Positions 822 through 54,320 of a DNA stretch of 64,000 bases are shown here, one piece after another; the stretch's first letter is position 1, and every line of letters begins with the position of its first letter. The position numbers and the translations under genes are program-made. Below the pieces are notes generated by a model. That model was not told the origin of the DNA and did no database searches. It saw only the letters and a list, made by a program, of their open reading frames with translations. This stretch comes from a virus. Location: positions 43,273 through 107,272 of IMG/VR virus record IMGVR_UViG_3300020192_000008; one strand, given 5' to 3'.

Positions 822-2471
822 TTACAGAAGGCCCCCGTAGATGTCAGCGCCCAACTCGTCCCAGAAAGCGTCCCGCAGATAGTGGACCGTGAGGGGAGTG
901 AAGAGCTGATCAACTGGTGCCGACGCCAGCTTACTGAACTCACTACCCCTTGGGGCAGATGCGTTCAGAAGTCCTTGTGCGCCGCTCACCAGATCCATGA
1001 GAGTTGTTCGGTACCCGTTGTAGGCAGCTCCTATCTTACGCAGCACTTCTGAGGGATGGGAAGAAGAGGCCCTCTTCTCACCCCCGTCGCTCTTCTTCAT
1101 CACAAGTACACGATGCTCAATCGCAGGCGCGAGAGCAGAGCGTGATTCCATGAGAGGGAGAAGAAGTCTTGCAAGTGAAGGAAGGAAGGAAGCGTGGCCG
1201 AGAGACATACTCTCAGTATCTTTCGATCTGGGGAAGACGATGTTCCGACGATCAAAGTCGTCAGCCATGTCTCTCCGTCCGATCTGAATCAAGACGATAC
1301 GCTGAAACTCCCTGGGACGAAGAACGATGCCCAAACCACCAGAAGTAGACAGGGAGCTGGGCAGGTCATGTTTCCCGAGTGCATCAAGCACATCATCAGG
1401 CAAATCTTCTTCTTCTCTCGACAGAGTGGCCACCGCCTTGCCAGCGAACTGGCTCGGCACAATGTCCTTGATGATCTCACTCTTCTTGAGCTTCGCGTCC
1501 TTGTATTGGAACGCTTCCTTGAAGATTGACTCGTTGAGAGAAGCCGTCTTTTCCCCAACGGTCATCTCGTCGTAGCCGAGCTTCTCCGCCTCATAGGCAG
1601 AAGAGCCGAACGAATAGACGCGCCCCTCAGACGCGATCTTCATCATCGTCTTGGCTGTCTTGTCAGCCCCGATGAAGACGAAAGAGATGTCGAAGAACTT
1701 CGGGAAGTCGTTGTAGACGTACACCTTCCGGCCATCGGCCAGAATCTTGTTCATCTGATTGCGAGCGTGCTCGCAATAGTCCTTCCGAGTGATCGACACG
1801 CCCCGGATAGGGGTCTTCTTATGGATGGCGAGGATGGCCTGGCCCGGAGACGCGTGCTTCTTCGGGTCGAAGGTGGCAGCCGCCTCGTGGTACCGCTTCC
1901 AATCGAGGCAGATGGAGCACGTATCGAAGGGCACCTTGCAGCCCATCGAGACATCCGGAAACATGCCCTGGCTGAGCTTGTCCCAGACCTGCGTGCCCCC
2001 GTACTCCTGGCACTTGAGCTTATCGACCCGAGTAACGAGCTCGACGCGCTTGAGCCTCGGGTGCCAGACAGCCAGCTCCACCTCACCGAAGGCGCGGCCT
2101 GCGTCCTTGTTGCGATGGTGGGCGTAGGGGTGGGCTGAATAGAAGGTCGGGTAGCCGTACGCCCAATCCTTCGCCTTGATCTTGTCGAGCAAAGGGTTGC
2201 CCGTCCAATCATCAGGGCGATGGATCAGGGCAGCTTCTGGGAAGTGATCGCCGTTGACATTGGAGCCGAAGAACTCTCCGGCCCCCATGGCATTGACGAG
2301 GTTGTACGCTGCATCATTCCGGGGCCTGAGCGACTCGATATACTTGACGACGTCAGGAAGAAGTGTGGCTGATGCGGTCTTCTCGAAGTACGCATCAGAC
2401 GCTTTGTTGAAGAGCGGGATGACCGTTGGGCCAGTCTCGCTCTCACCCCAGTATGTGCAGAGCTTGTACAT
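822..2471 (-). CDS. Prohead (capsid maturation) protease, HK97/assemblin-like fold with Zn-binding insert
   Basis: HHRNKD (candidate catalytic His), DVSMGC (candidate catalytic Ser), CSIC...YCEH, FFDISFVFIGAD; lies among head genes. Confidence 0.7.
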   Translation of the reverse strand: MYKLCTYWGESETGPTVIPLFNKASDAYFEKTASATLLPDVVKYIESLRPRNDAAYNLVNAMGAGEFFGSNVNGDHFPEAALIHRPDDWTGNPLLDKIKAKDWAYGYPTFYSAHPYAHHRNKDAGRAFGEVELAVWHPRLKRVELVTRVDKLKCQEYGGTQVWDKLSQGMFPDVSMGCKVPFDTCSICLDWKRYHEAAATFDPKKHASPGQAILAIHKKTPIRGVSITRKDYCEHARNQMNKILADGRKVYVYNDFPKFFDISFVFIGADKTAKTMMKIASEGRVYSFGSSAYEAEKLGYDEMTVGEKTASLNESIFKEAFQYKDAKLKKSEIIKDIVPSQFAGKAVATLSREEEDLPDDVLDALGKHDLPSSLSTSGGLGIVLRPREFQRIVLIQIGRRDMADDFDRRNIVFPRSKDTESMSLGHASFLPSLARLLLPLMESRSALAPAIEHRVLVMKKSDGGEKRASSSHPSEVLRKIGAAYNGYRTTLMDLVSGAQGLLNASAPRGSEFSKLASAPVDQLFTPLTVHYLRDAFWDELGADIYGGLL

Positions 2472-3010
2472 AAGGGGCCCTGACCGCCCTTGTTGTTGCG
2501 GCGCTGGTAGGGCTTGGCGACGACCTTGGGCTTGAGCGACTCGGCGAACGAGTTACCTGCGTGCTCACCACCCCTACGCCACGAATCAGCCATGGGGGAC
2601 TTGAACTTGTCGGAGGCCGACAGGCTCTCGGTGAGGATGCCACCGGCTGACATGGGGTTGTCGGCCATGCGGCGCAGATAGGTCCCGGCGACGATCGGGT
2701 CCTTGGCGAAGTTCGGATTCATGTTCCGAAGCGACGAGTACATCTGGTTGAACATCTTCGGGTCGCGCTCGTGATGCTCATGCAGGTCCGGGTTCAGTTC
2801 CAAGATCTGCTTGAAGTCGTGCGACTTGGTGGCCGCATCGTAGATCTTGCCAGCGGCCATGCCGGCGCCGGCGAAGGCAACTCCGGCAGCAGCCATCCCA
2901 AGACCCTGCGTCATCGCATGGCCGAAGCCCTTGGCAGCTTCACCACCGAAGGCGACCTTCTCCTGGGGCTCGCCGTACTGGGCGTAGAAGTCATCGAGGG
3001 GGTTAGACAT
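2471..3010 (-). CDS. Virion/head-associated protein (179 aa if TTA is stop)
   Basis: EKVAF motif and Gly/Ala hydrophobic segment. In-frame TTA 2473-2471 overlaps the protease ATG (TTATG). The standard code would extend it to 2225, about 245 nt into the protease gene. Confidence 0.65.
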
Positions 3011-4242: not shown

Positions 4243-4938
4243 ATGGATAAAAAACTCATGGGAAGCTGGCCCCGGCTGGTCTCCGTGCTGGAAGCAGCCG
4301 AGATGCTTTCGGTTTCTGTCGATCAAGTCCATCGCTGGAACCGGGATGGTCTACTAGAGGCTGAGTACCCAGAGGGAAGAAGAGGGGGGAAGTACTTCCA
4401 GACGGAAGACATCCAGACCCTCATAGAAGCTCGGGCCAGCAAGACGCTCTCTGACCATGATGTGAAGATTCTAGCCCTTCAGTCTCTGGTCTCCTCCAAG
4501 AGGGCAGAACGAAAACTCGATGAGCTGCTTGGGATGCTCGGTGTTTCGGACGTGAAGCTCGGTACCTCGAGGGAGGAGGTCTTGGCTTTCTTCGTCGAGG
4601 TAGAGGACGAGATCAAGGAGGGTGAGCCGCTCCTACCCGAGGAGGCGATCGGCTGGGCCAAGCGGATGCTGGGCATCACCGAGGAGTACCTGGAGCTAGT
4701 GAAGGAGCACACGTTCATGCTCGAGCCCTGGGTCCCGTACATGCAGCTCTCCAAGAAGCTGCACGACAAGTTCCCAGCAGGGCAGGCAGGGGCCTACCTC
4801 TCTCACGCCATCCGTAATCTTCGGCACACGGCGTACTTCTACGTGCGTCGGGCGGATGGGGTGAGAGAGGCGACGAAGCGCTTTCCCGAGGGTGGCGTGA
4901 CGAGCCAGCTCCTCGGGATCATGTTTCCGAAGAGCTAA
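4243..4938 (+). CDS. Helix-turn-helix DNA-binding protein (MerR/excisionase-like N-terminus)
   Basis: LVSVLEAAEMLSVSVDQVHRWNRDGLL...GGKYFQTEDI. Confidence 0.7.
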   Translation: MDKKLMGSWPRLVSVLEAAEMLSVSVDQVHRWNRDGLLEAEYPEGRRGGKYFQTEDIQTLIEARASKTLSDHDVKILALQSLVSSKRAERKLDELLGMLGVSDVKLGTSREEVLAFFVEVEDEIKEGEPLLPEEAIGWAKRMLGITEEYLELVKEHTFMLEPWVPYMQLSKKLHDKFPAGQAGAYLSHAIRNLRHTAYFYVRRADGVREATKRFPEGGVTSQLLGIMFPKS

Positions 4939-7836
4939 CCCTTGGTTCGTTGGCCCCGAGTAACCGCCGAGGTTGGGGCCACCGCTCCGAGCGTTCTCTT
5001 TCTTCGGGGTGATGATGTCCGGCCTGGGGTGGATGATCATCGAGCCAACGAAGCAGTAGATGATAGAGTGCAACGCATCATCAGGCCGATCGGGCCTGTG
5101 CTGGTACTGGATCATGTGAAGAGACTGGTTGTACTCTGTGAAGATGTTCAGGATGTCTTGCCCGAACGGCTCACGGAACTCTTCCCACCTGGGGAACATG
5201 ATCTGCTTGCGCTTGATGGCCGTGAAGACATCGCTCACGACTTCCGTCTTGTGCACCTTCCAACGCTGCAGCTTACCGTCCCACTCGACCTTCTTCTTGT
5301 TACGGGCCATGTACTGGAAGCGGTGCACGCGCTGGGTGCCGAAGCGACGGATCAAGTAGGCGTTGTTGTTGAAGCCACCGCCGTAGTCGCACCCGATGAT
5401 GCGGACGTTGTACGCATGCAGGATGCGCTTGATCTTCTCGAGCTGGATCTCAGGGTCCGTGTCTTCACCCGTGAAGCGGTGGATGAAGAAGATCTTGAAC
5501 TTCATCCCGTCGTAGTAGCCGAGACTCATGACCGTGTAGCTGTTCTCGCCCGTGTTACCTTGGTACGCGATGCTTCCGTTACGCTCTGTGACGATGTACC
5601 CCGAAGGCACGGCGCAGCAGTACACCTTGCCCGCATAGGGGACGTGCTTCACCGCCGTGGAGGGGGTGTTGAACTGGTAGTCTCGGCCCTCCGACCACAA
5701 GGCTCTCCAGCGCGTCTTCCGGTTCCCCTCCGCAGGCTTGTGCAGCTTCACGGAGCACCGAAGACCGAGCTTTATGCAGATCTCCTGGAAGTCCTCGCAC
5801 AGCCCTTTTGACGTCGAATAGAAGGCCCCTCCTGTGCAGCCCTCCCGAGGGTCCGTGTAACCGTCTCCGTCTACCAGGGCCTGAAACAAGATCCGAAGCT
5901 GCCTTTGGCCGAGGCCGAGGAACTCCCGTGGGATACGCTTCTCGTCCCCTTCGACCCCTACGTTCTGGGCGTACCACGCCCAGTACTGCTTGCCGTAAAT
6001 GGTCCAGTTGACGTCCCCAGTCTTTGGGTTCGGGAACGCCTTGAACGAGACCCCCACCCGGTCGAGAGACGCCTGCATCTTGAGGTAGGTCTCGTGGTTG
6101 ACCGTCTCCCTCTGCGACATCTTGAGGCAGGACGGGCGGCCCCCATCAAAGCAGACCCCGCCCTCTGTCACGAGATAGCCGAGTAGCTCCAACCAGTCGT
6201 CCATGGGGACGGTCTTGTCCTCAGAGCCCTTGTACCCAGGGCTCGTCGGCAGCCCCGGCAGCGTGAAGGCCTGCTTCTCCTCTCCTTGCCAGTCGACGTA
6301 GCCCACGAACTTGACGTTGCCGCCCCGTTCTACGAGTTCGCCCGCCGACTCGGTGAGCCACCGCTCTCCCTGGGAAGTCCCGACACGCATGCGGTGCGTA
6401 TGGGTGATCATCAGATCGAGCCCCCCCTTGGTCTCGAAGTGTAGAAGTGGCTGGTCCCAGTCGCGTACCGTACGAACCTTCGGAGCCACGAAGGTCATCG
6501 CACGCGTTTCTGGATCCCACTGGGCTACCTTGTCTTCGTCGGTGAGATCACAGAAGTACTTGAAGCCAGACTGCGTAAGAATGCGTGTCTTGTCATCGTG
6601 ACAGCCCCAGTCGATGCCAGCGAAGATGTTGCCGGCGGTAGCCGTCTTGCGGATCTTCTCGAGGGCCGTGGGGTGCATCGTCAGCTTGGGGTCGCATGAC
6701 TCCTTCAGCTGGCCCATGGTGATGGGCCGGAGGCCTGAGTCGTAAGACATCCCCAAGACTTCGTTGTAGAACTTGTCGCGGGGGTACCGCTCGTAGTCGA
6801 GCAGGATTTCCTCCCACGACCGCCAAGGCACCATCAGCTGGGGGATGCGGTAGCTCTCGAAGACCCCGTCACGGACCTGGTTGATCCACTTCGAGTCCTT
6901 GTGCATGGGGTCGATCTTCCCCCCGCACTTCTCGCAGATGAGGCTCTTCTTACCGATGTTCTTCTCGCAGAGGATGTTCCAGTGCCGGCCAGCACCGCCA
7001 CCAACGGAGGACCCGCAGTGGTCGCACGGCACCATCCACTCACCCTGCGTCGACATCGGGCGGCCCTTGGCCACGCCTGACCGGTAGAACTCGATGGGGT
7101 TGTCGAGCCCTTTGGGTGTGCCGGCGTAGATGAAGCGCTTGAACTTCTCCGGAGCGTGGCTTGTGCACTGCTCGATGACGGGGATGTTGTCGGCGAGAAT
7201 GTCTTGGAGCTCGTCGAGGGTGAGCAGCCAGGCTGGGATGCCTCGGGTACGGTCGGCGTTGAGGAACGCATACCTCAAGGTGATCTTCGCCCGGTTGACG
7301 AACTGCTTCTCGAAGATGTTCTGCGACAGCATGGTCGTCGTGAACGTCTTCAAGACCTGGCTCGTCTCGATGGGCTCCTTGATACGGTCGACCGAGAAGA
7401 CCTTCGTCTGCGTGGCTGACGGGCTCACGTACAGCGTCTTGTACGCCGGCACGACGCACGAGTACGAGAGCATGATGTTGCCGATCATGGTCGACTTCTC
7501 GACCTGCCGGCCACAGAACAGGAGCACGCGCCTGGCTGGGGTGTTGTAGGGGCGGCGCATGTGCCGACGCCCCTCAAACGTGAAGTTCTCGTACCCCATA
7601 CCGTCCTGCCGAGGCATCCGGAAGGCGAACTCGGTGAACTGGCTGGGCAGGACAGCGGGGATCTTGACCGCTGCCCTGCGCTTCTCCTCTATCTCCCAGA
7701 AGTCCTCGAAGGGCTCTGGCTCAGGGAGCCAGGGCTTGCCGTTGTGCATCCTTCGGAGTTCTTCGTCTGTGAACTCTTCAGGCTCGAGGTCCTCTTCAGA
7801 AGGGACCGTGACGGGGTCAGGCTGGAAGCTGCTCAC
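4936..7836 (-). CDS. terL: Terminase large subunit with LAGLIDADG intein
   Basis: GRQVEKST (Walker A-like), LTLDE (Walker B), AGTP, GIDWG nuclease motif, PDDALHS. Ends at in-frame TTA 4938-4936; the standard code runs to 4696, 243 nt into the convergent gene. Confidence 0.88.
5554..6603 (-). mobile_element. Intein (350 aa) with LAGLIDADG homing endonuclease in terminase
   Basis: GIDWG|CHDDKTRILT...THTHRM...ERNGSIAYQGN|TGE; LAGLIDADG-like LLGYLVTEGG and FQALVDGDG; penultimate residue Gly, +1 residue Thr. Confidence 0.9.
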
Positions 7837-9171: not shown

Positions 9172-9178
9172 CTAAGGC

Positions 9179-11356
9179 TAACGCCTGCTGGAACGCCAGC
9201 GTCTTGAGACCCTCGATGACATCCTCGAGGTACTTCACGCACTTCTCGAGAGGGCCCTGGGGGATTTTCGAGAGCCCGAGCCTCGACGACATCAGCAGCT
9301 CACAGAGCTTCGCCTGCGTGCTGTTGATCTCCGGCAGGTAGGAGACGAACGTGTGGATGTTCTCGGGGTTCACGAAGCCGATGGAGAGGATCGTGTCGAC
9401 CGAGGTGGGGTCGGGGATGAAGGCCGCCTCCTTGAAGAGGTTGCGCTTGAGGTCGAAGGCGGGGCTCGAAGCGAGCTTCTCCTGGGACTTCCTGCGCGAG
9501 GCCATCTTCACCGACTCGGCAGGCTGGATGTGCCGGCCCACCCGGACGTCGACCGGCATGCCATGGGCAATCGCCTGGGCAAGCTTCGTCTGGGCGTAGC
9601 CGAGGTCTGTACCCAGGCCACCCAACAGGAAGAGCGAGTCGTCGAACGACAGGAAGTGCTTCTCGTCAGACGCCAGCTTGTCGATGGGGAAGCCCTCGAA
9701 CGAGAAGCTGTTGACGCCCCCCGCCCTCACGGTCACCGAAGCAAGCTTCCGCTGGGCGTGCGCCACCTTGTTCCCGCCCTCAGGGGCGCTCACCAGGACA
9801 ACGCTTTCGGCCTTGCCCATGCCCATCCACTTGTAGTCCTTGGGCAGGAGGAACGTACCCTCATCAGCCTGGGTGGGCTTCTGGATGTTGGGCTGCAGAG
9901 AGACTGTGCACTCGCGACCATCGTAGGTCTCGACGTGCAGCTTCTGCTCCCCGTCCGTGACCTTCCCCTTGATGGTCATGGGGATGGTCGCCTCTGTCTC
10001 GTCACCACTCTGACGAACGAACACGCCGGTGCCCGTGGGGGAACCGAACATGAGCTCGCCGTTGGTGCTCTGCAGGCTACCGGCGATCTCCGGCTGCACA
10101 GCCGCCGCCGACCCGTTCGTGAACAGGGCGATGGGCAGAACTGTGCCGTCGAGGTCAGTCAGGTTGGGGAATACGAGCCCCATCATCTCGGTGCCCTCCT
10201 CGTTCTGCACCTTGTACGTGCCGAACTCGGTGATGGGCTTGAGGTCTGCCAGCGGGGCGCCTTCACCCACGGCATCGTCAGTGACGGTGACCGAGCCATG
10301 CTCATCGGCATCCTGGGCGAGCTTCACCCCGAAGTGCTTGATGATGTCGCCTCGGCTGACGGAGTGAGCCTCCTTGACCTGCCAGTACTTGTGGTTCGCC
10401 TCCTTGACCCGGTAGCCCACGTTCTCCTTCGAGACCTGGATGACCGAGGGGCGGATGGCGCTCTCCATCGAGGAAGCCACCTTCTCGCTGGTCACCTGGT
10501 TGGTGTTCCAGATCTTGTTGATGGAGGGGAGGGTGGCGTGGGCGTTCTTCACGTACGCCTGTTGAACCCCAACGTCCTTCATCTCGTGGGCGAAGGAAGT
10601 AAGGTCGGAGCTCAGTGCTGTCGGAAGGATGGCCTCGAGCAGAGAGGCTGACTTCTCCACACCAGTCAGGTCATGACCCGAGGTCTTGAGGTCAGACTCG
10701 TTCGGGTCCTTCTTGAAGCCCTTGAGCTTCTTGGCATCGACACCAAGCACCTTCGACAGGCGCTCTGCGAACTGCGCCTTGTTCTTGTCTTCGGCCGTCT
10801 TGGTCTCAACGTGCAGCTGCTCACGCAGGTAGTACTCGAGATCTGAGCTGGTCTTGCCCATCATCCCGCCGGCGCCACCCATGCCGCTGCCATCCCGGTG
10901 GGGCGGGTAGATCTGACTGGCCATCGACGTGTCACCTGGCGTCTTGCTGGTGACATCGAAGGTCTGTGGGCGGAAGAGGGCTTCCTTCAGACGCCGCTCG
11001 GTGAGGGGAAGAACCTTCGAGTCACCAGTAACGATGAGGTCGAGGGGCTGAAGCTTCTTGTCCTTGACCACCACCGGGATGCGAACCGACTTCACGCCCA
11101 CGGCGTCCTTGGCCTGGTCGCTTGCGCCTTGCTGCAGCTCGGTCTTGTTGGAGATCTCAATGTGGCCGAATGCAAAGCCACGCTCACCATCGATTCGATC
11201 CATCACCGTGTGAGGCTCGAAGTCCGAGATGAAGGGGATCTGCTTGTACGCTTCCTGCAAGATCTCCTGCGACCACTGGTTCGGGTCTTCAGGAAGAACA
11301 GTCTCAGCGGCCGTCTTCTGGATCGGCAGGATGGAGTCGAGGTAGAGGTTCGTCAT
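9179..11356 (-). CDS. Large head-associated protein rich in K-x-A-S motifs (725 aa if TTA is stop)
   Basis: QKTAA, EKSAS, EKVAS, RKLAS, DKLAS, VKMAS, EKLAS. Ends TTA GCC TTA just before the next GTG at 9171; the standard code overlaps that gene by about 500 nt. Confidence 0.7.
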
Positions 11357-12023: not shown

Positions 12024-13220
12024 TCAAACGAGGCACGATGCTTCGCCCGTGAGGATCATCCCGAAGAGAACAAGGGGAGGACTTCCAGGAACGGGTACTG
12101 GCGTAAAGGGGAAAGTGAGTTGCACCAATGCCCCCTGAGCAGCCACGGGCTTGGAGCCCTTGCCCAGGCGAACAATGCTTCCCTTGACGTGGGCCAGAGC
12201 TCCGCCATCGAGAACCATACCGTTCTTGGCCTTCATCAAGATCTGATTCTCGCTCTCGAGAGTCAGGTCTTCTTTGCTCTTGATGTAGATCTTCTTCTTC
12301 GAGGTGAGAGCCACGTTGCCCTGCGCCCTGAGGAAGACGCCACCAGCCTTGTCGAAGAAGAACCTCATGACAACCTTGTCACGGGTCTTGTTGTCGATGG
12401 GGTCCCCTGTGTCTGCGTTGAATCCCTTGGGGGCTATCACGCACTCAACCACGATCTGCTCCTTACCGATGCTGAGCAAGTCGAGCAGGCCCTGCTCACC
12501 ACCATCACCCGATGGCTCGATGATGGGGTCATGAATCTTGCCCACCTTCACCCGAACATCTGCCTCTTCATCATTGGCCAGGATGCGAAAGGTGTGGGTG
12601 TACTCGCTGGGTAGGTCCTGGTAAGCCGGGCCTTCTTGGATGCCCCAAAGAACAGACCCACCGTGGTTGTGGTGGGCATAGTTCTTCGTCATCTGCATCA
12701 ACGTATCGGTGAGCGGGATGTAGATGCTCTGGCAGATCTCCGAGCAGCCGATCTGCAATACACCGCCCCGATGAAGGATAACGAAGTTGCCATCCCTCGT
12801 ACGGAACCAGATGTCACCCGGCTTGGCCTTGGGCCTACCCCCTGAGAAAGTCGCGCTAGTCGAGCTCTTGTTCGGCTGGTTGTTCGACTGCGTTCCCTTG
12901 GGCGCGTCCGGAGCTGCCTGGTCGTTGTACTCAACCGGCATGATGAACGAGCTCACGTAAGGGGGTGAGCTGTCGGAGGGGACGGTGACCATGCACTTGG
13001 CACCAACCTCGGGGAAGACGTAAGCGCCCTCCCCGTTGTTGTAGTGCAAGTACATGCTGCCTACTTGGATGCCAGCAAACCTATGCCGGTCGAACTGGCT
13101 GATGACATCCACCGTCCAGTTCGCCAGGTTGACGCCGACGATCTTCCCTTGAAGAACGTACGACTCAACGTTCCCCTCCATGAAGGTGAACGAGGTGCGG
13201 AAGCGTTGGATGCCTTGCAT
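12024..13220 (-). CDS. Baseplate central spike (gpV/gp5-like)
   Basis: N-terminal OB-like region (GKIVGVN...FPEVGAKCMV) and C-terminal short beta-strand repeats. Confidence 0.55.
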   Translation of the reverse strand: MQGIQRFRTSFTFMEGNVESYVLQGKIVGVNLANWTVDVISQFDRHRFAGIQVGSMYLHYNNGEGAYVFPEVGAKCMVTVPSDSSPPYVSSFIMPVEYNDQAAPDAPKGTQSNNQPNKSSTSATFSGGRPKAKPGDIWFRTRDGNFVILHRGGVLQIGCSEICQSIYIPLTDTLMQMTKNYAHHNHGGSVLWGIQEGPAYQDLPSEYTHTFRILANDEEADVRVKVGKIHDPIIEPSGDGGEQGLLDLLSIGKEQIVVECVIAPKGFNADTGDPIDNKTRDKVVMRFFFDKAGGVFLRAQGNVALTSKKKIYIKSKEDLTLESENQILMKAKNGMVLDGGALAHVKGSIVRLGKGSKPVAAQGALVQLTFPFTPVPVPGSPPLVLFGMILTGEASCLV

Positions 13221-16200
13221 CAGTAGCTGTGCTCCGACACGTTCTCGAGGTGCTTGTAGCCAGGCAGCTTCGACTGGTTCTTGTTCAGACCAAACTCAGC
13301 GCCGTAGGCAATCGCGGGGATCGGGTGGCTGCCGTGCAAGTTGCTCTTCGACCGCATGGCTGCGCCCTCGGCGATGGTGTCGCGGAGGTTGCGGTGCTGC
13401 AGCTTCGCCATCCAGTCTTCCTGCAGTTCGAGGGGCATCATGTTGACGCCCTTCAGAACAGGGGTGTGCTCGATGGGCTTCTTGCCCGCTTTGGCCAGGT
13501 CGTTGTTCATCTTCTGCACCATGCTCAGGGGCTGGAACTCGCCGCGCAGAATGCCCTCTGAGTCCCCAGGATGCACGACCTTCGTGAGGTTTGACATGGC
13601 TTTGACGACTACTTCGACATGGCGGCGCTTGATGCCCTCGTCCTTGTAGAGGGAGTACATCTCGCTTACGAGGTGGTTCTGCACCTTGTCGATGGAGCCA
13701 GTGGCCTTGTAGAGGTCGTGCGGGTTGAGCACGGTTCGGTGGGGGTCGGACAGAGACTGCCCAGCCTCGATGTGGTCACCGATCTTGGGGGGCGCCCAGC
13801 TGAGCAGGTTCTCCTGGCCTGGCAGCAGGTGGTGCAGAGGCATGCCTGTCTGGTCCTTGCCGACATGGTGAGGGCGCTTGCCGACCCACACGTTCACGCC
13901 CGTCGCTGTGTTCTCCACCTTCTCCACCTTGCCCGAGACCATGGCCAGGGAGGCCGCGTTGGGGATCTTCTGGGGGAGCATGGCGAGCTGCTCGAAGCGG
14001 CCGAAGCCCGACACAGCGGCTGAGGCACCACCGGCGACACCGCCAGTGTGGAACTCCTTCATGGTGAGCTGCACGGCTCGCTCACCGAGCGTGTGGCTTG
14101 AGAGCACCCCGATGTTGTCGCCGATGTTGTGCATGTGGCCAGTTGAAGACAGGCCTACGCACTTCTGGCAGATGCCCTTCTCATGCTCACACCGCAGCGG
14201 GCTACGCACCACGATCTTGGCATTCTTATCGGCGGCCTTGATCTGCGCGACCTTGTCGGGGGTGAGCAGCTCCCCGGCCTTGATGTGTACGTGCCCAGCC
14301 TTGAAGTCGGAAGCCAGCAGGCGATCGTGTACATCCTTCTCGTTGATGTGCAGAGAGATGCCCCTGGTCGTCCCGCAGTCGGGCTGGGTCACGAGGATGT
14401 CCATCGTGTTGTTCTGCAGCAGCTTGGACATGTAGCCAGGTTCCTGGGTCTCCTGAACCTTCATGACCGAGCCCCTGCGAGCTCCGTGCATCTGCGTCCA
14501 GTACCCGGCCATATCGAGGCCTTCGGAGTAGCTCTTCGTAACAGGCAGCGGGATGACCCTGTTGTTCGCGTCCGTGAGCAGCATGGGCGCAATCTTCATC
14601 TGCTTGTACTGAGCCCACGACGGCTTAGCCCCAGCCTTGTACATGATGTACAAGTTGTCCATCTTCTTGTCGGCTTCGATCTTGTGGGCGTCGCCGATCT
14701 CCTTGTCGGCCTTCATGTAGATGTCAACGATACGACGCTCCTTGTCGTTCTTGTTGACCCTACTAGCCCGAACAGCATCCGCCTCCTTGTGAGCGCCGAC
14801 GAGCACCTTGTCTCGACCGATCTTGTCCGTCTGGAAGTCGGCAAGAGAGAGCGTGTGCATGCCCGTGGGTACGAAGATGTTCTTCTTCGGATCGTTGATG
14901 TTGTGAACACCAACGTTAGGCATGGGCACGGTCACCGTGCCGAAAGCCGAGTGGTTGCCCACGTCCTTCAACATGTTGACTGACTTGTCGAACTGATCCT
15001 TGTGGTCTTTGCCGAGCTTGGTGAGCAGTGACTCAAGGCCCTTCTTATCGATACGCATCTCCAGGTTGTGGAGAAGGTCTGCTTGCATGCCGAGCGGCAT
15101 GGTAGTAGCGAGAAGAACCCGGCCAGCGGTCGTCTTCTTACCGTTGAGAGAGACCACGTCGTTGTAGTGGAACTTGCCCCCTCGCACGGCGTCAAGGATG
15201 TCGCCAGGAGTCTTGAACGTATGGCTCGTTTCTTTACCAACCATCGAAAGCTTGTAGAGCCCGATGGCCGAGTCGAGGGTGGGGATGAACGCCACCCGCC
15301 CCGTGTTCTCCATGAAGATATTGTTCGACGGCTTCATGCGGTGCGCTTCGGCAACCGCGTCCCTGTGGATGGGGACGAAGACGCTCATGGTGTCTCCGTC
15401 GAAGTCGGCGTTGAACCCACCGCAGACAAGCGGATGGATCTTGATGGCGTTGCCCTCTACACGCTTAGCCTGAAATCCCTGCACGTTGTACTTGTGAAGG
15501 GCGGGGTCACGCTTGAGCAGGATAGGTCGCTCTTCCATCACGGAGTCGAGGGCCTTGATGACGCTGGGATGATCTTTCTTCGTAAGGAGCTTCTGCGCGT
15601 CGAGAGGGTTCGATGCCGCACCCATCTCCTGAAGCTTCTTGACGATGAAGGGGCGAAACAGATCAAGCGCGTGGTCCTTCGGGAGACCGACCTCATCAAG
15701 CCCCAGCGAGGGCTCTGGGACGATGGTCGAGCGCATGGTCAGGTCCTGCCGCTTCTGGACGACGGACTTCTGGAAGTACCCGTTCTTCGGGGAGGCACCG
15801 GAAATCTGATGAAGGAGCCCCTTGTGCTTTGCCTGAGCGTAGGGGACGTGTATCCCGATGACAGCCTTGACGCCGTCGTAGTAGTTCTGACGAAGCTCCT
15901 TCTTCATCTCGTCGGTCAAGTGCCGCGCCAGCGTCGGGTCCTTGAGCTTATCGTTGACAAGGGCGAACTCCGAGTACAGCTGGTTGATGTCGGCGTACTT
16001 GATGTTGCCATCAGCCATCGGGGACGCCGGCCGAAGGACTGGTGGGATGATGGGCATCTTCGTCATTACGTAGGCTTCTGATGCGCCTACGCCCAACTGA
16101 TCGAGAGCCCTGAGGTACTTCACCTTCTTCAAGACCGGGTCAACCTTGGCCATGGGAACGGAGTTGAGCTCCTTCATCCCGGCGGCCAGGTCCTTCTTCA

Positions 16201-32944: not shown

Positions 32945-33350
32945 AGAAGTCCCGCACGAAGTGAAAGAGTTCCTTGAGGCTCAGGACCGCATCATCCGCT
33001 ACCGGGAGGCTCACCCCGATGTCTTCGAGACGTACGAGGAGCTTGCCTCCACGTACAACGACAAGCTCGAGGCAGCTGACAAGGTCGTCCGGGGCGGGGC
33101 GCTGAGCGTGGGGCCCTTCGAGAAGTACCAGGTCCAGAACAGCTACGACGCCGACAAGCTGTTCGAGGAAGTGGGTATGGAGAAGTTCCTGGCCATGGGT
33201 GGCACCATCAAGACGAAGGCTGTCTACGAGGTGGACCCCAACCGCCTCAAGGCCGCCATTGCTCAGGGCACTGTGCCAGCTGACGTGGTGAAGAAGGTGC
33301 ACAAGGAGACACCGAAGTACCACAAGCCACAGAAGCTGGTGGTCAGGTGA
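32928..33350 (+). CDS. Hypothetical protein
   Basis: MKTKTEEVP..., 140 aa, GTGA-coupled to the next gene. Confidence 0.65.
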   Translation: MKTKTEEVPHEVKEFLEAQDRIIRYREAHPDVFETYEELASTYNDKLEAADKVVRGGALSVGPFEKYQVQNSYDADKLFEEVGMEKFLAMGGTIKTKAVYEVDPNRLKAAIAQGTVPADVVKKVHKETPKYHKPQKLVVR

Positions 33351-33670
33351 GGACGGCGAAGTTCAACGCGCTCTCCGTCAAGGAGCTTTCTGCCAACTTC
33401 ATCAGCTCTGACCCAGCGCTTGAGGGCAAAGCAGCCTTCGTCAGCACGCTGACGCAGAAGACGCATGGTCAGACCATTGGCAAGGTCTGGAGCAAGGACA
33501 CCCTCGACTTGCTCACCCAGCTCAAGGCCTCGATGGAAGCAGACCTCGAGACGGTTCACTTCGCTGACGGGCCGACCAGTTCTTCCATCAACCAGCAACC
33601 TCGTCAGATCGACGAGGCTTTTGAGGGTGGGGGCATAGGCGAACACATCGGTGGTGAACGTCAAGTGTTA
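33347..33670 (+). CDS. Hypothetical protein
   Basis: In-frame TTA at 33668-33670, shortly before the standard TGA at 33680-33682. Confidence 0.6.
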
Positions 33671-33775: not shown

Positions 33776-35158
33776 ATGGCTAGCAGCGAGCACCAGCTCA
33801 TTTCCCTGATCATGAAGACAGGGGATTTGAAGACAGTACTCGAGTGGGGGATCACCGAAGACGATCTCCTGATGAACGACACGAACTCGGCGTTCAAGAT
33901 CTTGATGTCGGTGTACACGAGCCCCGATTCAAGGGGCGCTGTACTTGGGCCGTCATCAGCACTTGAGAGGTACCTGCCCGCGTGGCAGTTCGAGGTTGAT
34001 GCGGGCATGACGCTCAACTTCCTTTGCAGCGAGGTGCGCAAGCGCAGGCTGTCGAAGGAGCTGAAACTCAAGGCACAGGCCTGCATCGAGTACGCAGACC
34101 TCAACCCTGAGGAGGCATTCAACCAGTTGAACGAGGCAGTGACCCTCTACCGCAACATCGATGCCGGCAAGTCAACAGACGTTGACCTGGCAACGGGCAT
34201 GAAGAAGGTCATCGCGAAGTACAACAAGGCCAAGAACGGGCAGAGCATCGGCCGGTTCATGTGGCCTTGGAAGCCTCTGCAAGAGGCTACTGGTGGTGTG
34301 GCTGACGATGAGTTCGCCGTCTTCTACGGCAGGCCCAAGAGCATGAAGTCTTGGATCTTGATGTACCTCATCACCTTCGCCTTCGAGATGAACCAGAAGG
34401 TTCTCTTCTACACCAAGGAGATGACCGACGAGCAGTGCTACCAGCGGATGGCCGCCATCATGGTCGGCGCTCTCTACCAGGACCTGCGCCTGGGCAAGCT
34501 GCCTGCCTTCCAGGAAGAGCAGCTGCACGTCATCCAGCAGGTGGCCGAGGAGATGGCCTCGAAGAACAGGATGATCTGCCTCACGGCCAAGGACGTCGCT
34601 GGCAGGGACACCCCCAGCTGGCTGCGAGGCAAGATCGAGAAGTACCACCCCGACGTTGTCTTCGTCGACGGTCTGTACCTGATGAGCCCCGAGGCTCGCC
34701 GTAAGACGATGCAAGACCACGAGCGTGTTCGGGAGATCTCCCGTGACGTTCGACGCATCGTTCTCGAAGAGAAGGTCCCGCTGATGGCCACCATGCAGGC
34801 CAACCGGCAGGCAGCGAAGCACTCTGAAGGCAACCTTGATGAGATCGCCTTCTCTGACTCGCTCTCGCAAGACTGCACCATGGCTTGCCGGGTGATGTCC
34901 GACAAGCACCAGCCCACCATCAGCCTCGTGATGGCCGGCTCTCGTGAGTGGACGCTCGACGGGTTCCGGGTGCACGGCATCCCAGCGAGCAACTTCAGCT
35001 TCCACTCGGTTCTGACCAGCAAGGAGATCGAACAGGTCAGGAAGAACGACGAAGAGGAGGACGAGCCGAAGGACAAGAAGCCCGTACGTCAGCCCCGCAC
35101 GTTGGGGGCAGAGAAGCCTGCTCCCAACTACAAGAAGACGCTCGAGAACATGCCGTTA
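33776..35158 (+). CDS. dnaB: DnaB-like replicative helicase (460 aa if TTA is stop)
   Basis: GRPKSMKS (Walker A), VFVDGLYLM, QANR, SDSLSQD. TTA 35156-35158 overlaps the primase ATG; standard stop is at 35266. Confidence 0.85.
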
Positions 35159-36126
35159 TGGACAGGCACTCGGAGGTACTTGCTATCGCACAGAAGTACC
35201 TTCACAAGGTCAAGAAGAGCGGGCCAGACAACGTCATGGCGTTCTGCCCCTTCCACGACAACGTGAACACCCCGGCGTTCACGATGTCGTTGACCAAGGG
35301 CATCTGGTTCTGTTTCTCATGCCACGCCAAGGGAACACTCAAGATGTTCCTCAAGGCGATGGGCATAGGCGAGGGTCTTGTTCAGACGCACTACGGCTCG
35401 CTCATCGACGCCCTACGCAAGAACGTAGACCCGGCCTTTGATCCCAACAAGCCTGGGGTCATCTGCCAAGAGCCTCTCGACGAAGCCATCCTCGGGTTCT
35501 TTCACGAGTGCCCGATGGATCTAATCAACGAGGGCTTCACCGAGGAAACCCTGCTCCACTTTGGGGTGGGGTTCGACAAGAAGCACAACCGCATCACGTA
35601 CCCCATCCGAGACTTCACGGGGAACCTGGTCGGCATCAGCGGGCGCACTGTTACAGGTGCCTACCCGAAGTACAAGGTCTACGACCTGGAGTACAAGGAC
35701 TTCGGTCTGGGCGTCTACCACACCGACAAGTCTCGGTACCTCTGGAACTCGAGCGAGGTCTACCCTCAAGTCTACTTCTCAAGGGGCGAGAAGGTCGTGC
35801 TCGTTGAGGGCTTCAAGGCCTGCATGTGGGCCTGGCAAGCGGGTATAAAGAATGTGCTAGCCCTTCTAGGCTCATCAATGTCAGCCCAACAGAAGTGGGT
35901 GCTTGAGCGTCTAGGCGCACCGGTGTACCTCTGGCTAGACAACGACGACGCCGGCCGTAATGGCACGAAGAAGATTGGCGATGATCTGTCCAAGTCCTTG
36001 GACGTGTTTGTCATCGGCTACGAAGAAGCGCAACCGAGTGATCTCGCCCTTGAAGATGTCCAGAGTAAAGTCGCCTCCGCGACGGACTATCACCTGTGGG
36101 CAGTAAGAAAGTACCTGAAAGGTTTA
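35158..36126 (+). CDS. dnaG: DNA primase (CHC2 zinc finger + Toprim)
   Basis: CPFHD...CFSC, GISGR, VEGF, LDNDDAG. Ends GGT TTA TGA, with TTATG overlap to the next gene. Confidence 0.9.
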
Positions 36127-37283
36127 TGAACATGGGCTCCTACGGCAAGACTGATATGAAGAACGCCCCGACCACCTTCCGCCAGTCGGTGGCCAGCCAG
36201 CAGAAACAGAAGCCCGAGAAGACTGGTGCTGGCGGGGGGAACGTCCCCTACTTCGTCAACCAGTTCAAACCCTCGACGGAAGAGCCAGACGTGGTGCGCC
36301 TCCTCAAGGGGGAGTACCCGGTCCAGCTGGCTGGGCAGAACGGTGAGCTGGTCGAGCAGACGCTCGCCTACTACATCTACCGCGAGCACTTCGATGGCCG
36401 TACCAACAAGAGCGCCATCTGCTCAGCGGGACCGTTCGCGATGGACCGCAAGAAGCGCCAGCCCTGCGATGGCTGCGACATCTACTGGGAGGAGCGGTCT
36501 GCGGGCAAGAAGCAGAACAACCGCATGTCCAACCGGGAGATGTACGTCTTCTCGATGCTTCATCACGCCAACTACGTGAAGACCGAGCAGCTCGACCGCA
36601 ACACCGGCGCCGTGAAGGTGAACGATGACGGCCAGCCGTACATGAACTGGGTACGGATGATGGCCCACGAGCGTGGGAAGTTCGCTGGCAAGGAGATGAA
36701 GGACGCCAACGCCCTTCACTGGGCCATGGGCTTCAACCACTTCAACGTCATCCGCGAGTACGACAAGCAGATCGGCAAGTCGTGCAGGGCGTGTGGTGTG
36801 AAGGCTGGGCGCAAGGGCGCTCACGAGGTCGGGGTCAAGAGCGAGGCGTGGTGTTGCCAGGGCTGCGGGGAGGCGCTCATCGAGGTCGACTCAACGGAGC
36901 TGGCGCCCAAGCAGATCGACGAGATCACGTCTGACGTGGTCGAGTGCGCTGTGTGCAAGCGTGTCGGCTACCTGCAGGAGATGGTGTCCTGCACCGAGTG
37001 CTCGGATGGAACGCGCTCGGAGATCTTCGACGTGGACCTGGAGGTTCAGCGGGTGAAGCCTGCTGATGGTGGCAACCAGACGGTGCTGGCCATTGTGGGC
37101 TGGGCGAACCCGCACCCCATCGACCCTCGGCATGTGGAGATTGCCAGGCCGCTGGAGCTGCCGAAGATCTACGCGCCTACCCCGCTCGAGCGTCAGCACG
37201 AGCTCTTCGGTAGCTCGGGGAGGCAGCCGGTCACCGCTGGCAGCAAGCCCTACGGCGGGCCTCCGACTCTCGGCGGCAAGTTA
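36126..37283 (+). CDS. Putative single-stranded DNA-binding protein with Zn ribbons
   Basis: Between primase and polymerase; EHF...C...CDGC plus several CxxC motifs. TTA 37281-37283 lies just before a terminator. Confidence 0.55.
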
Positions 37284-44008: not shown

Positions 44009-44348
44009 GGAACTGCTCGGGGCCTGCAACCACACCGAGCTGCACCAGATCTGCAGGCGTATGGACATCCATGTCAGACCGACCGCAAGCCGGGAAGACA
44101 TGATCGACTACATCTGCGGGAATGATGAACCCCCTCCGCCATGGCACGGCATCAATGCCTGGCGACATGCCCTCATGGGCTTCGTTCTCGACAACTGGGA
44201 ACTCATACGTTCTCAGATCTCCTGCCCGGCTAAGTCTGGTGACCCGCGTGCCTGCTTCGGTTGTACCGATACGCAGGTGATGTTCTGTGTTGTCGACAAT
44301 CACGACAACGAGTCTCTCATCCAGCTGCACAAGAAGGATCAACCATGA
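43983..44348 (+). CDS. Hypothetical protein with HeH-like N-terminus and Cys cluster
   Basis: NHTELHQICRRMDI...SREDMIDYI; CP...CFGC...C. Confidence 0.6.
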   Translation: MSSSIRSFEELLGACNHTELHQICRRMDIHVRPTASREDMIDYICGNDEPPPPWHGINAWRHALMGFVLDNWELIRSQISCPAKSGDPRACFGCTDTQVMFCVVDNHDNESLIQLHKKDQP

Positions 44349-45052
44349 ACGCTCCCGCAACCACGATGCCCAGCCCCGAGACCGCTCCCCGCACGCCCGA
44401 GGAGCTGACGAAGATGACCGTCTTCCTCCAGCGCAGGCTGGCCGAGCAGCTCAACTCGTCGGGCTTCCCGGTCTGGACGAGCGAGCCGGAGAAGACGGCC
44501 TTCATCACCGAGACCAGCGAGAAGCGCGGGATGATCTTGGCCGAGAAGCTGGCCGCCTTCGACAAGGCCCGTGGCGGTGCTCCCGCCGCTGCAGCTCCGG
44601 TGGCTACGGTGACCCCCATCACCCCGCCGACGGAGGCAACGCCGGCGCCCGCCACGGCCAGCAAGCGTCAGCCCAAGACGCAGGCGGCTGCACCTCCTCC
44701 GGCAGCTGCCCCCGCTGTCAGCGGTGAGCAGGGGGTGCTCTCGTCCGAGGTCGTCAACCTGCTCAAGACGGTCTCGACCGACCTGAAGAACCTGCACGGG
44801 ATGACCGATGCGAGGATCGAAGGGGTGGAGAACCGTCTCGATGGCGGCAAACTCGTCACCAAGGGCGACCTCGTGGAGCTCAAGGACATGCTCACGGCGT
44901 CGATGCGCGTGCAGCAGGCCACGCTCGGGGTGCTCTGCCTGTTCGGGCAGGAGGTGCTCAAGGCCTCCACCCGTGACGTGATGGGTCCGGCGATCGAGGA
45001 GGCGAACAACGCCCTCGACGCTCTGGAGGAACTGGGCAAGGGAAAAGCATTA
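44345..45052 (+). CDS. Hypothetical protein with Ala/Pro linker; -1 frameshift isoform would extend to 45237
   Basis: AAGGA SD; ends AAG GGA AAA GCA TTA; standard-code stop would be at 45208. Confidence 0.65.
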
Positions 45053-50487: not shown

Positions 50488-50841
50488 TAAGAAGGAGTTC
50501 ACATCAGGGAAGCTGGGGTTGATCTTCGTGCCCGCGAATGAGTACTTCAAACCTTCTTCGATGACCCAGATGCTCAGGTCACCCAGCGCCTTGCGGATCT
50601 TGTAGAGACTCGACTTGCTCACCCCGTTGTTAGGTCCGTGATACCCCCGGGCCATCTCGAGGGTGATGGGCTGAATCTTGTACCGGTAGGTGAACTCGTA
50701 ATAGGGACTGCCGCCAAGCTTCTTGATGGCCTCCCAGAGCTTCTCGTACGTCTCCTTGTCTTCGGCGCTGAGCCGGTACTTCTGCGAAGGCTTCACCTTC
50801 TTGGTGCCTTCGTAGAACCTGCGCAGTCTTCGGAGGCTCAT
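50488..50841 (-). CDS. Hypothetical protein
   Basis: In-frame TTA at 50490-50488; standard stop at 50440. Confidence 0.5.
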
Positions 50842-51047
50842 GGCATGGCTTTCCGAGCGTGAGGTTTGATGCGAGCTACTAGCTCAGCCCCCACTGTTGT
50901 ACCGCTTTCTATCGAAGACCTGCGGGCCTCTGCAACGAGCTGTTCTACCTGCTGCAGACACCACTGGTAGGCGGGCTTTTCATACGCCCCGTCCTCGGCG
51001 ATGGTCCGCTGTACGTGCCGTGCGTAAGCACGAAACTCGTGGGCCAT
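50838..51047 (-). CDS. Small hypothetical protein
   Basis: MAHEFRAYARH...; ATGA coupling to the next gene. Confidence 0.5.
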   Translation of the reverse strand: MAHEFRAYARHVQRTIAEDGAYEKPAYQWCLQQVEQLVAEARRSSIESGTTVGAELVARIKPHARKAMP

Positions 51048-51594: not shown

Positions 51595-51682
51595 CTTCAA
51601 CTCCTTCTCCCAGCTTCTCTAGCTCGGCTTTCGCATCATCCATCTCTCGCTGAAACCACGGCTTGCTGTTTTCATCCGCCAT
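51581..51682 (-). CDS. Small protein (33 aa)
   Basis: AAGGAG SD; TTATG overlap with thyX; MADENSKPWFQREMDDAKAELEKL... Confidence 0.45.
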   Translation of the reverse strand: MADENSKPWFQREMDDAKAELEKLGEGVEDGTT

Positions 51683-53595
51683 AACGACTCCTTGATGAGT
51701 GCGAAGTTGTGTTCACCGGGGATGGTCTTGCGATGCTGGACCCACCCCTGGACATTGCCCAGGAAGTGCGTGCAACGATCGACGTCTATCCACGCCTTGT
51801 TGAGCTCATCCCACTCGTAGACGGGCTGGTAGAACATCTCGAGCTCCTTCTCCGTCATGGGCCTGCACGGGTGCTCGAGGGGGCTCATGTGCCCAGGCTT
51901 CACGAGCCTGTCGTAGAGCTCGAGGTCCTTGGAGATGTCGCGCTTGCCATCGTGGGCGAGGGCAGAGACGCGGGCGCAGCGGGCTGCGGAGACCTTCACC
52001 AGCTCAAGCCGTACCTCAGTCGTCGTGTCGCTCCAGGAGTAGTAGCTTGCGTCGCCACCGTCGACGTACGGCAGGTGCCACTCACCGTGCTTGAGCTGCT
52101 TGGGCTCGCTCTTGTCGTAGACATCCTTCATCATCCCCGCGACCATCTGCATCTCGGGTTGAGCGTTGGGGTCGCAACGCAGGGCGAAGAAGTTGTCCCA
52201 CTCGGTCGCGGTACAGATCACAGTCTGCCAGCCCCACGGCTCGAGCAGGCGGTTGGCATGCTGCTTGTGTACAGCGAGGTTGAACAGGCCCTGAGCTGCA
52301 CGGACGCACGCATCAAGCGCATCCGTCCAGTGCTTGGACGCTTCGTGGTTGGAGAGCTCGCTCATGACCTCGGTTGCCTGCATCCCCTTCTGGTTCTTGG
52401 TGAAGGCGATGGGTACGAAGGGGTTGGCCTTGACGCGCTCGATGTTCTTCTCGACGGGGATGGCCCTCGAGGAAGCTGAGTTACGGCTGTTGTGCACGAC
52501 GACCCCATTCGCGAGGAAGTTGGGGTACTTCCCCACGATCTCGAGGTCGTAGGTTGGCTCTTGGCCCCGCGAGACGATCTCGTCGATCCGTGCGAGAGAC
52601 CCGTACAGATACGTGCCGCCCTGCCAGCCCTGCTTCTCGTGCATCGCGCAGTGGCAGTCGTCGCACAAGAGCGTGACGTTAGTCTCTTCCAGAGCCAGAG
52701 AAGGATCCTGATGCACCGGAACGACGTGGTGGATCTGGTTGCCTTTCTCGGCGCAACAGCGACGACACATGGCGTCCATCGACCGCATCCTGTCGCGCAT
52801 CTGGCGCTGCCACACCGAACGCCACTTGCCATCGATCTTCTTCAGACGCAGCGGGTCAGTTCTGTCGTCGTCCTTCTTGCCGAACTTCCTGACGACGAGA
52901 AGGTCGCCCTTCTGTAGGTCTTCGATGCGGCGCCACCCCTCTGCCGTGAGTACGCGGTGGTCCCTACTACCGGCGATGCGGAAGTCGCCCGCCCTCACCT
53001 CGAACACCTCCTTGGTGCCTGACGGGTGGGCAGTCACGACGTGCGACGTTTGGATGTCCCCGGTGTCCTCGTTGAGTTGACGGATGGCCATGCCCGCGAG
53101 CTTCGCGCGCATGTCGAAGCGTGTGTGCTCCGGTTTGCTACTACGCCACACGATCAGGTCTCGACCGAAGATGATCCAAGTCCTCCCGTTGGTGCTGAAT
53201 CGTTCGGCCTTGATGTACCCGTCACGGCACAGCTTGTTGATGTTGCTTGGGTTGGCCATCCCAAAGCGAGAGGCAGCTTCCTGCGCGGTGTAGCGCTCAT
53301 CGGGGTTGATCCACGAAGTATCGTAGTTCGTCTTGGGGTTGGCTCCGACGCGGTCGGCGCCGTTCGACCACTTGTCGACGAACTCGGCGATCGTCATGCG
53401 GTACACTCGGCGGTGCTCCCCCTTCCTGCTCCCTGCGGGCGAGTCGAACTCCAGCATCGAATCCCCTGCGAGGCAGAAGACCCGGTGTGTGTTGTACTCA
53501 GCCAGGATGAACCTGGGGAACGTGCACTCGATGGTGGTGATGCGGTGCCCTGAGGGGCTGATGCTGTCGGCGATGATCTTGGCTGCGTAGTTCAT
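51682..53595 (-). CDS. thyX: Flavin-dependent thymidylate synthase with intein
   Basis: After splicing the signature reads THRVF|SRNSASSRAIP; HKQHANRLLEP, NAQPEM, SAARCARVS, HMSPLEH. TTA at 51684-51682. Confidence 0.9.
52489..53475 (-). mobile_element. Intein (329 aa) with HNH endonuclease and an HTH insert
   Basis: F|CLAGDS...GSRDHRVLT...TYDLEI...NFLANGVVVHN|S; CRRC...HHVVP...NVTLLCDDCH. Confidence 0.9.
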
Positions 53596-53597
53596 GA

Positions 53598-54320
53598 CTA
53601 TCCCTTTACGCCCATCGGTTTCTTGCAGGTGCTGCAGGGCTTGCCGACCAAGAAGCCGTCGACAAACCCAGGGTCGTACTTCGAGCACTCCGGGCATGGC
53701 ACGGTGGCTTTTATCGTGCGCTTGACTGCCTTCTTCTTGGGCGTGCCACTCGTGGTGATGTGCTCTGACTTTGGTGGTTCGGGCTCTGCCACGTAAACCG
53801 TCGGGCTGCGACGCTCTTCTTCGATGAGGGCGCGCACCTTGTCGAGATCCTTGGGCGTGTGCACGGTGCCGCCGGTGTTGAGGTCGAGGTACCACTGGTA
53901 AACCTGCAGCGGCGTCTCGAGCTCGTTGACGTGCCAGTTGAAGTAGGCGCACGATGGCAGCAGGTCAGTGAAGTCCCTGGCGTAGAGATCGCCGAAGACG
54001 GACACCTTGTTCTGCAGAAAGTCGAGAGCTGCCGTGAGGCGCTGCTTGCCATCGACGACAGTGAAGTTGCCCACGCGGCCACGGCTCCAGCCGGGGCAGT
54101 TGGTGTAGATGTCACGGCTCGAGTGGCCGCCCTTCAGCACGTACTCGACGTACCGAGTCTGCTGCTCAGGCGTCCAGACGTAGCCGCGCTGAAAGACCGG
54201 GTCGATGTCGAGCTTCCACTCCTCGTAGTGCTTCAGGGTGTGCTCGATATGACGCCAATCTACCGTGACGCAGTACCCACTGCTGCGCGTGAAGCGCTCG
54301 ATGTCTTCGTACTTAGCCAC
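53598..54320 (-). CDS. DUF262 (ParB/GmrS-like) domain protein
   Basis: PVFQRGYVW, VVDGKQRLTA, LNTGG. Confidence 0.8.
   Translation of the reverse strand: MAKYEDIERFTRSSGYCVTVDWRHIEHTLKHYEEWKLDIDPVFQRGYVWTPEQQTRYVEYVLKGGHSSRDIYTNCPGWSRGRVGNFTVVDGKQRLTAALDFLQNKVSVFGDLYARDFTDLLPSCAYFNWHVNELETPLQVYQWYLDLNTGGTVHTPKDLDKVRALIEEERRSPTVYVAEPEPPKSEHITTSGTPKKKAVKRTIKATVPCPECSKYDPGFVDGFLVGKPCSTCKKPMGVKG

Follow-up and report, generated by a model that had tools for sequence, protein, structure and literature searches.

One triplet at the ends of two convergent genes

Can the same three base pairs of DNA end two genes that face each other? The question is raised by a triplet that reads TAA on the plus strand, at the end of a gene for a DNA-binding protein, and TTA on the minus strand, within the open reading frame (ORF) of a terminase large subunit (TerL). 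The DNA comes from an uncultured phage, and the stretch analysed (the window) is the final 64 kb of a single 107,272-bp IMG/VR virus contig (60% GC; CheckV completeness 58%). Coordinates are window positions unless marked as genome positions. The features at the locus are:

4936..4938, both strands: shared triplet; TAA on the plus strand ends the MerR-like gene, TTA on the minus strand is the putative end of TerL
4243..4938, plus strand: gene for a MerR/HTH_17-type DNA-binding protein of 231 aa, ending AGC TAA, with Pfam profile matches
7836-4936, minus strand: terminase large subunit TerL, 966 aa plus the putative terminating TTA; the GTG start at 7836 is provisional
4696..4935, minus strand: stretch after the TTA, 80 codons to a TAG at 4696-4698; antisense to the HTH gene and non-coding on the minus strand
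5554..6603, minus strand: predicted intein with a LAGLIDADG-type homing endonuclease, TerL residues 412-761; a gap in the alignment with L001 and L002

The letters are as the first-pass annotation had described them: the HTH gene stops with TAA at 4936-4938 (...ccg aag agc TAA), and the same bases are the first in-frame TTA of the terminase on the minus strand (...cca acg aac caa ggg TTA gct..., in the frame of ORF 7836-4696), where the peptide ahead of the TTA is ...GGYSGPTNQG. Since TTA appears to mark true gene ends in this genome, the triplet 4936-4938 would stop two facing genes at once. We consider it likely that in this phage UUA ends translation and is no longer read as Leu, which would bring the number of stop codons, with UGA, UAA and UAG, to four.

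The identities of the two genes are supported by profile searches. The plus-strand product, with a predicted N-terminal winged helix-turn-helix, matches MerR_1 at 23.4 bits (cut-off 21.6) and HTH_17 at 26.9 bits (cut-off 27), and tblastn finds homologues of similar aligned length in the related phages G001 (27% over 225 aa) and G004 (28% over 229 aa). Under table 11 the TerL ORF runs from 7836 to 4696 (1046 aa), and its sole in-frame TTA is codon 967. It matches GpA_ATPase at 45.4 bits (cut-off 25.6; 1e-11) and phrog_675 at 2e-52, is 43-73% identical to TerL of 57 related phage contigs, and gives a weak Terminase_6C match of 17.5 bits, which is under the cut-off. The putative intein is a 350-aa insert (CHDDK...YQGN/T) after ...GIDWG, with Cys at +1 and an N/T junction, and L001 and L002 have no such insert; splicing is predicted, and the LAGLIDADG_3 match (E 9e-4) is below the Pfam cut-off. 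In L003 (9878-12982) an insertion lies instead in the ATPase region close to the P-loop, and in several other relatives the TerL match spans 2.8-4.1 kb, an indication that the sites of the inteins vary.

When the 107-kb genome was scanned for further convergent TAA/TTA pairs, as had been proposed, one triplet was found exactly in common at three of the 12 convergent junctions (genome positions 7990, 21914 and 48208). At eight other junctions the genes are separated by 37-221 nt, and at one an 81-aa ORF gives an overlap of 97 nt that is doubtful. The sharing of TAA/TTA triplets by two genes exceeds chance. These sites also bear on the possibility of a sequencing or assembly artefact, in which a TAA, TAG or TGA was miscalled as TTA. 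In favour of an artefact, the contig is a metagenome assembly. However, the earlier argument against a base error is valid, as any standard stop made on the minus strand ruins the plus-strand TAA, and this holds at all three sites. Moreover, the TTA effect is specific to the reading frame, with out-of-frame TTA evenly spread; the same pattern recurs under other IMG/VR records (G004, G003, L041/L042/L095 and L058); and an 893-aa read-through ORF recurs on another contig (22,378 bp), which includes 884 of its residues, all of them identical. We thus regard an artefact as scarcely credible.

The C-terminus of TerL and its junction in related phages

We compared the TerL C-terminus with three relatives first, and then with 57 IMG/VR contigs of a phage family of ~100-190 kb. 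In 43 relatives the alignment reaches the last TerL residue, and all of them end in ...QG. The codon that follows is TAG in 26, TGA in 10, TAA in five and TTA in one (L039, from the contig called G004), so that 41 of the 43 carry a TAG, TGA or TAA exactly at the position of the TTA in the window genome. TTA directly after ...QG is found solely in the window genome and G004, and both times it is also the TAA of the facing gene. The 80-aa extension LALRKHDP..., whose conservation among TerL homologues would have spoken for translation past the TTA, is present in none of them. Its composition points the same way. GC at codon positions 1/2/3 is 0.84/0.42/0.61 in the stretch after the TTA vs 0.55/0.42/0.84 in the TerL body; the tail is the antisense mirror of the plus-strand coding frame and has no coding pattern of its own. 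Read under table 11, it would make TerL and the HTH gene overlap convergently by 243 nt.

Many relatives have a convergent gene that abuts TerL or lies near it. In 12 of them, including L025, L026, L028, L029, L030, L036, L049, L050, L062 and G001, the stops of the two genes overlap as a CTAG palindrome (TAG on both strands), and in two further relatives the junction reads CTAA. The CTAG junction is conserved, and its zero spacer leaves a terminator no space. The window genome and G004 lie on different branches of the TerL tree; both have TTA and TAA in exact register at this junction. By this comparison, the junction of TerL with a convergent gene is an old feature of the phage family.

Position of TTA and the coding signature across the genome

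Among 106 long table-11 ORFs (33,975 codons) of the whole genome, TTA occurs in frame 24 times. Seventeen of these (71%) fall within the last 20% of their ORF (binomial P ~1e-7), and three lie in the first tenth, upstream of plausible later starts. The share in the last fifth is at most 31% for all 60 other sense codons and 25-26% for out-of-frame TTA. TTG, with 266 in-frame occurrences of which 24% fall in the last fifth, is an ordinary sense codon, and TCA is likewise normal. The trinucleotide TTA/TAA is five-fold depleted in all frames. Composition changes at the same points: GC1/2/3 is 0.60/0.44/0.80 ahead of TTA and 0.62/0.58/0.61 after it, the control, the last 40 codons of TTA-free ORFs, giving 0.59/0.44/0.74. 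We also applied a test that needs no gene calls, in which we took codons that follow at least 40 codons of open frame bearing a coding signature and measured the signature downstream of them. It was 0.03 for TTA, 0.03 for TGA and 0.08 for TAA vs 0.24-0.25 for CTA, TTG and ATA. The coding signal ends at TTA, which groups with TGA and TAA and apart from every sense codon.

The nucleotide that follows TTA bears on a different explanation, namely, a +1 ribosomal shift at the rare TTA that puts a TAG in frame (GGG TTA G -> TAG), so that a standard stop is met after the slip. A G does follow TTA in eight of the 24 cases, TerL included. However, the other 16 TTAs precede T or C, where a +1 slip meets no stop; general re-pairing in the P site is barred by the codons in front (GGG, CTG, GCG, AAG and others); and the TerL site of G004 is TTA CGA. 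Such a shift therefore seems extremely improbable as the general cause. In-frame TTA is followed by A in none of the 24 cases in the window genome and none of the 15 in G004.

We considered a recoding of TAG as well and rejected it, since coding sequence does not continue past TAG in any of the five genomes, G003 included. G003 (L020), in which TTA is end-biased, has a 74-nt tRNA with anticodon CUA at genome position 37886-37959, of the amber-suppressor type and labelled 'Pyl' by ARAGORN.

Putative TTA-ended genes and their junctions

With four stops, 18 of the 118 genes of the genome would end in TTA, 69 in TGA, 17 in TAA and 14 in TAG, and the TTA-ended genes belong to the virion and replication modules alike. 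The putative TTA ends in the window, besides that of TerL, are:

2471..2473, minus strand: TTA of a 179-aa gene (3010-2471); TTATG overlap with the start of a 549-aa gene (2471-822); relatives carry a stop here or directly beside
9173..9181, minus strand: TTA GCC TTA closing a 725-aa gene (11356-9179); the next gene starts with GTG at 9171; the G001 and G005 orthologues end here; 37 'end' matches in the homology classing described below
33668..33670, plus strand: TTA of a 107-aa gene (33347-33670)
35156..35158, plus strand: TTA of a 460-aa gene (33776-35158); TTATG overlap with the next gene; the stop in G001 is one codon later
36124..36126, plus strand: TTA of gene 34948-36126; TGA immediately after, and the ATG of the next gene overlaps
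37281..37283, plus strand: TTA of gene 36096-37283; a standard stop stands 7 codons further on
45050..45052, plus strand: TTA of gene 44261-45052; evidence from composition, no homologue
50488..50490, minus strand: TTA of gene 50841-50488
51025..51027, minus strand: TTA of gene 51600-51025
51682..51684, minus strand: TTA of gene 53697-51682; the G001 orthologue ends at most 2 residues away

At five of the 18 TTA ends, the TTA overlaps the ATG of the next gene as TTATG; the corresponding TGATG is found at nine of the 69 TGA ends. Taking TTA as a stop reduces table-11 overlaps of 247, 243 and 497 nt to 1, 3 and 0 nt, respectively, the last of these being the same-strand overlap of the 725-aa gene. 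Two ORFs on the minus strand (58558-63003 and 62481-63854), both with a coding signature, overlap by 523 nt whether or not TTA is a stop, which may be a start over-call, a frameshift or a real overlap.

Use of TTA in related phages

Orthologues were compared by blastp and tblastn against G001 (100% complete) and G003 (59%). They stop at the TTA or a few residues away, and for TerL the agreement is exact. For the 725-aa gene, residue 724 aligns with residue 888/889 of the orthologue, which is followed by TAA, and homology to relatives indicates that a 648-aa 'ORF' is two genes joined by a TTA. Measured against G001 and G005, extension beyond the orthologue is confined to ORFs in which a TTA stands late (median +19 aa, maximum +169), and the median for the 111 other comparisons is 0. 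A 126-aa gene upstream of the window, like TerL and the 725-aa gene, has its TTA where homologues carry standard stops; in L041, L042 and L095 the codon exactly at the orthologous stop is TTA too.

We then classed each in-frame TTA of 50-odd genomes or loci by whether stop-free homology crosses it ('inside') or not ('end'). The end/inside counts are 10/0 in the window genome, 6/1 in G004 and 5/1 in G003. In G005, a sister phage that is 88% complete and has 58.8% GC, they are 4/44, with the inside TTAs mostly aligned to Leu (Fisher P 2e-8), and the 'inside' class dominates in most of the remaining relatives. TTA is read as Leu in G005, and G001, where it occurs inside the RNA polymerase, reads it as sense too. 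Two window-genome TTAs at first gave 'inside' matches in tblastn, which we rejected, as all of these matches have stop codons at or beside the TTA column and stem from the overlapping next gene. Eight of the 24 in-frame TTAs of the window genome have no homologue, so that for these the evidence is that of composition. These comparisons show where coding ends, and that TTA is barred from gene bodies. The first-pass claim that a fully shared bidirectional stop requires TTA to terminate is accordingly upheld by the standard stops of TerL relatives together with the genome-wide tests.

The comparisons also bear on a reading in which TTA remains Leu and the tails are real C-terminal extensions, arisen by stop loss or programmed extension, TerL carrying an 80-aa antisense tail. 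It is true that the table-11 ORF continues uninterrupted to 4696 and that read-through ORFs have been retained in public gene calls. However, the tails lack a coding signature and are missing from all homologues, they would impose the 497-nt same-strand and 243-nt convergent overlaps, extension goes with TTA and with none of the other codons that stop loss could yield, which show no enrichment at ORF ends, and TTA occurs at no conserved internal position. We judge real extensions to be very unlikely.

Many relatives avoid TTA wholly or almost so: there is none in ~7,000 codons in L030, L031, L034 and L044, and G001 has 12 in 57,621 codons. On the TerL tree the TTA-stop trait is polyphyletic, amid relatives with few or no TTAs.

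Search for tRNAs, release factors and a host

We searched the phage DNA and candidate hosts for a cause. ARAGORN found no tRNA in the 107-kb window genome or in G004, and no tmRNA in the window genome; no Rfam family was matched in the window. G001 has a tRNA cluster at genome position 97285-97520, with Tyr(GTA), an unusual tRNA whose anticodon was called as four bases (actc) and Arg(TCT), and a Gln(CTG) elsewhere. No RF-1 domain was found in six phage genomes searched, and no PCRF domain in five. Ten genes without homologues in relatives where TTA is Leu, of which four are common to TTA-stop relatives and six have no match in a relative, gave nothing translation-related in Pfam; the matches were GmrSD_N, KilA-N, NrdJ and dCTP deaminase. 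The GmrSD_N (DUF262-type) protein, of 240 aa (53601-54320, minus strand), is common to G003 and not to G001 or G005; it may be a nuclease against modified DNA or a counter-defence gene. Searching a protein atlas with NrdJ returned viral clusters only and no host clue, and a metagenome scan for closer relatives returned known or distant contigs only.

Three MAGs contain contigs with a related TerL; two of them belong to Myxococcota and one to Chloroflexota. In 232 kb of MAG G008 TTA is an evenly spread sense codon, and 90 kb of MAG G007 has only 2 TTAs. RF2 of the three MAGs with related contigs carries the canonical SPF motif, and the RF1 motifs are canonical too. All 120 RF2 sequences nearest to that of G007 (Labilithrix-like) have SPF as well. 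A pattern scan of 401 Myxococcota genomes for RF2 with the Ser of SPF replaced, which covered only replacement codons starting with C or G, found none; its seven matches, in six genomes, include no release factor.

An alternative is that UUA is an unassigned 'hungry' codon, for which the host has no tRNA, so that ribosomes stall and the peptide is slowly released by rescue factors or drop-off, which the phage tolerates or exploits at its gene ends. It would agree with the finding of no release factor in the phage genomes searched and with the near-total avoidance of TTA by many relatives (L030, L031, L034, L044 and G001), which suggests hosts that decode UUA poorly. However, ~15% of the genes, including TerL, end with TTA, and the five TTATG overlaps mimic termination-reinitiation coupling. 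In addition, tmRNA and ArfA act poorly on ribosomes that stall while mRNA still fills the A site, and tagging by tmRNA would destroy the product. A hungry codon hence seems unlikely, though it is the least improbable of the alternatives considered.

UUA as a putative fourth stop codon, and known systems

In the explanation that we prefer, UUA is a true fourth stop. TerL would end in ...TNQG with its TTA at 4938-4936, on the same three base pairs as the TAA of the MerR-like gene, so that the two genes would have nothing but their stop codons in common and the 80-codon tail would stay untranslated. No tRNA-Leu(UAA) would be available during infection, and UUA would be read by a class-I release factor with relaxed recognition of the second codon base, most likely the host RF2 or else a factor whose gene lies in the ~40% of the phage genome that the contig lacks. 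Against this explanation stand the negative searches for a cause in the phage genomes, the canonical SPF of RF2 in the MAGs with related contigs and the ordinary sense use of TTA in one of them (G008). Because we found no mechanism in the phage DNA, the RF1 and RF2 of the MAGs are canonical and the search for RF2 variants in Myxococcota was negative, we infer the tRNA loss and the relaxed release factor from organelles in which UUA is a stop (PMC12574857). Evolutionarily, the change may have proceeded by codon capture, in which TTA was lost under GC pressure together with its tRNA and then came back as a stop. The scatter of the trait on the TerL tree beside TTA-avoiding relatives fits codon capture, and its polyphyly among TTA-poor relatives agrees with adaptation to hosts in which UUA is not decoded. 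The phage family, in which members with TTA as Leu, without TTA and with TTA as a putative stop stand side by side, would thus form a natural series for the codon-capture model.

With moderate confidence, we favour a wider version of this explanation: outside organelles, UUA would be a fourth stop read by a release factor, either because the hosts belong to an unrecognised lineage of bacteria, possibly Myxococcota, in which it has been reassigned from Leu, and several unrelated branches of the ~180-kb phage family have adapted, or because the phages impose the code themselves; the TAA/TTA triplet would then be a 3-bp bidirectional stop that joins convergent genes without a spacer. Low-level read-through past the TTA may occur. 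If this explanation is true, the shared triplet is a form of genome compaction that is impossible under the standard code, and a bacterial host or a phage factor with changed release-factor specificity awaits discovery.

The first step of codon capture has a bacterial parallel. In Micrococcus luteus, a high-GC bacterium, AGA and AUA are unassigned codons. The phage would resemble it in the loss of an AT-rich codon and its tRNA under GC pressure; unlike in M. luteus, where the codons are simply absent, TTA would have returned at 18 gene ends. The closest parallels for the outcome are in organelles. The mitochondrial code of labyrinthuleans (Thraustochytrium) is presumably that of NCBI table 23. 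UUA is a stop in labyrinthulean mitochondria and in peDinoflagellate plastids, and these organelles have their own mutated RF2 with a substitution of Ser204 (PMC12574857). As in the phage, the same codon has gone from Leu to stop, and it is confined to the 3' ends of genes, at places where homologues carry a standard stop (PMC12574857). In contrast to these organelles, the phage is one in which we found no release factor or tRNA, the trait is scattered among sister phages that read TTA as Leu, and standard stops close ~85% of its genes. In the mitochondria of some green algae, Marsupiomonadales and Pseudoscourfieldia, both UUA and UUG are stops through an altered mtRF1a (PMC12574857), which is likewise a sense-to-stop change that includes UUA; in the phage, however, TTG stays a sense codon. 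In the literature that we searched, sense-to-stop reassignment is described only for mitochondria and, since 2025, for plastids (PMC12574857), and we found no case in bacteria or phages.

Recoding in phages has so far consisted of TAG or TGA being read as an amino acid (bioRxiv 10.1101/2021.08.26.457843). Like those phages, the phage studied here would differ from table 11 while relatives keep the standard code; unlike them, it would have turned a sense codon into a stop, with no suppressor tRNA and with TAG and TGA still acting as stops. UUA also triggers translational bypassing in the terminase genes of the Streptomyces phage phiHau3 and of prophages (PMC10732093). This case is similar in that a rare UUA in the terminase gene of a high-GC phage is a non-Leu signal tied to scarcity of the cognate tRNA (PMC10732093). 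However, the UUA of phiHau3 is internal and precedes a gap of 7-10 nt that is hopped to continue the protein (PMC10732093), whereas in the window phage the TTA is at the natural C-terminus, nothing continues after it and the effect is genome-wide.

Consequences for annotation

If UUA is a stop, pipelines that apply table 11 mis-annotate about one gene in six in such phages, giving fused or extended proteins. The 893-aa read-through ORF already sits in public protein sets. A 2126-aa single-chain protein of the window (13220-19600, minus strand) is 49-58% identical across the family, and its gene in G004 ends TTA TGA.
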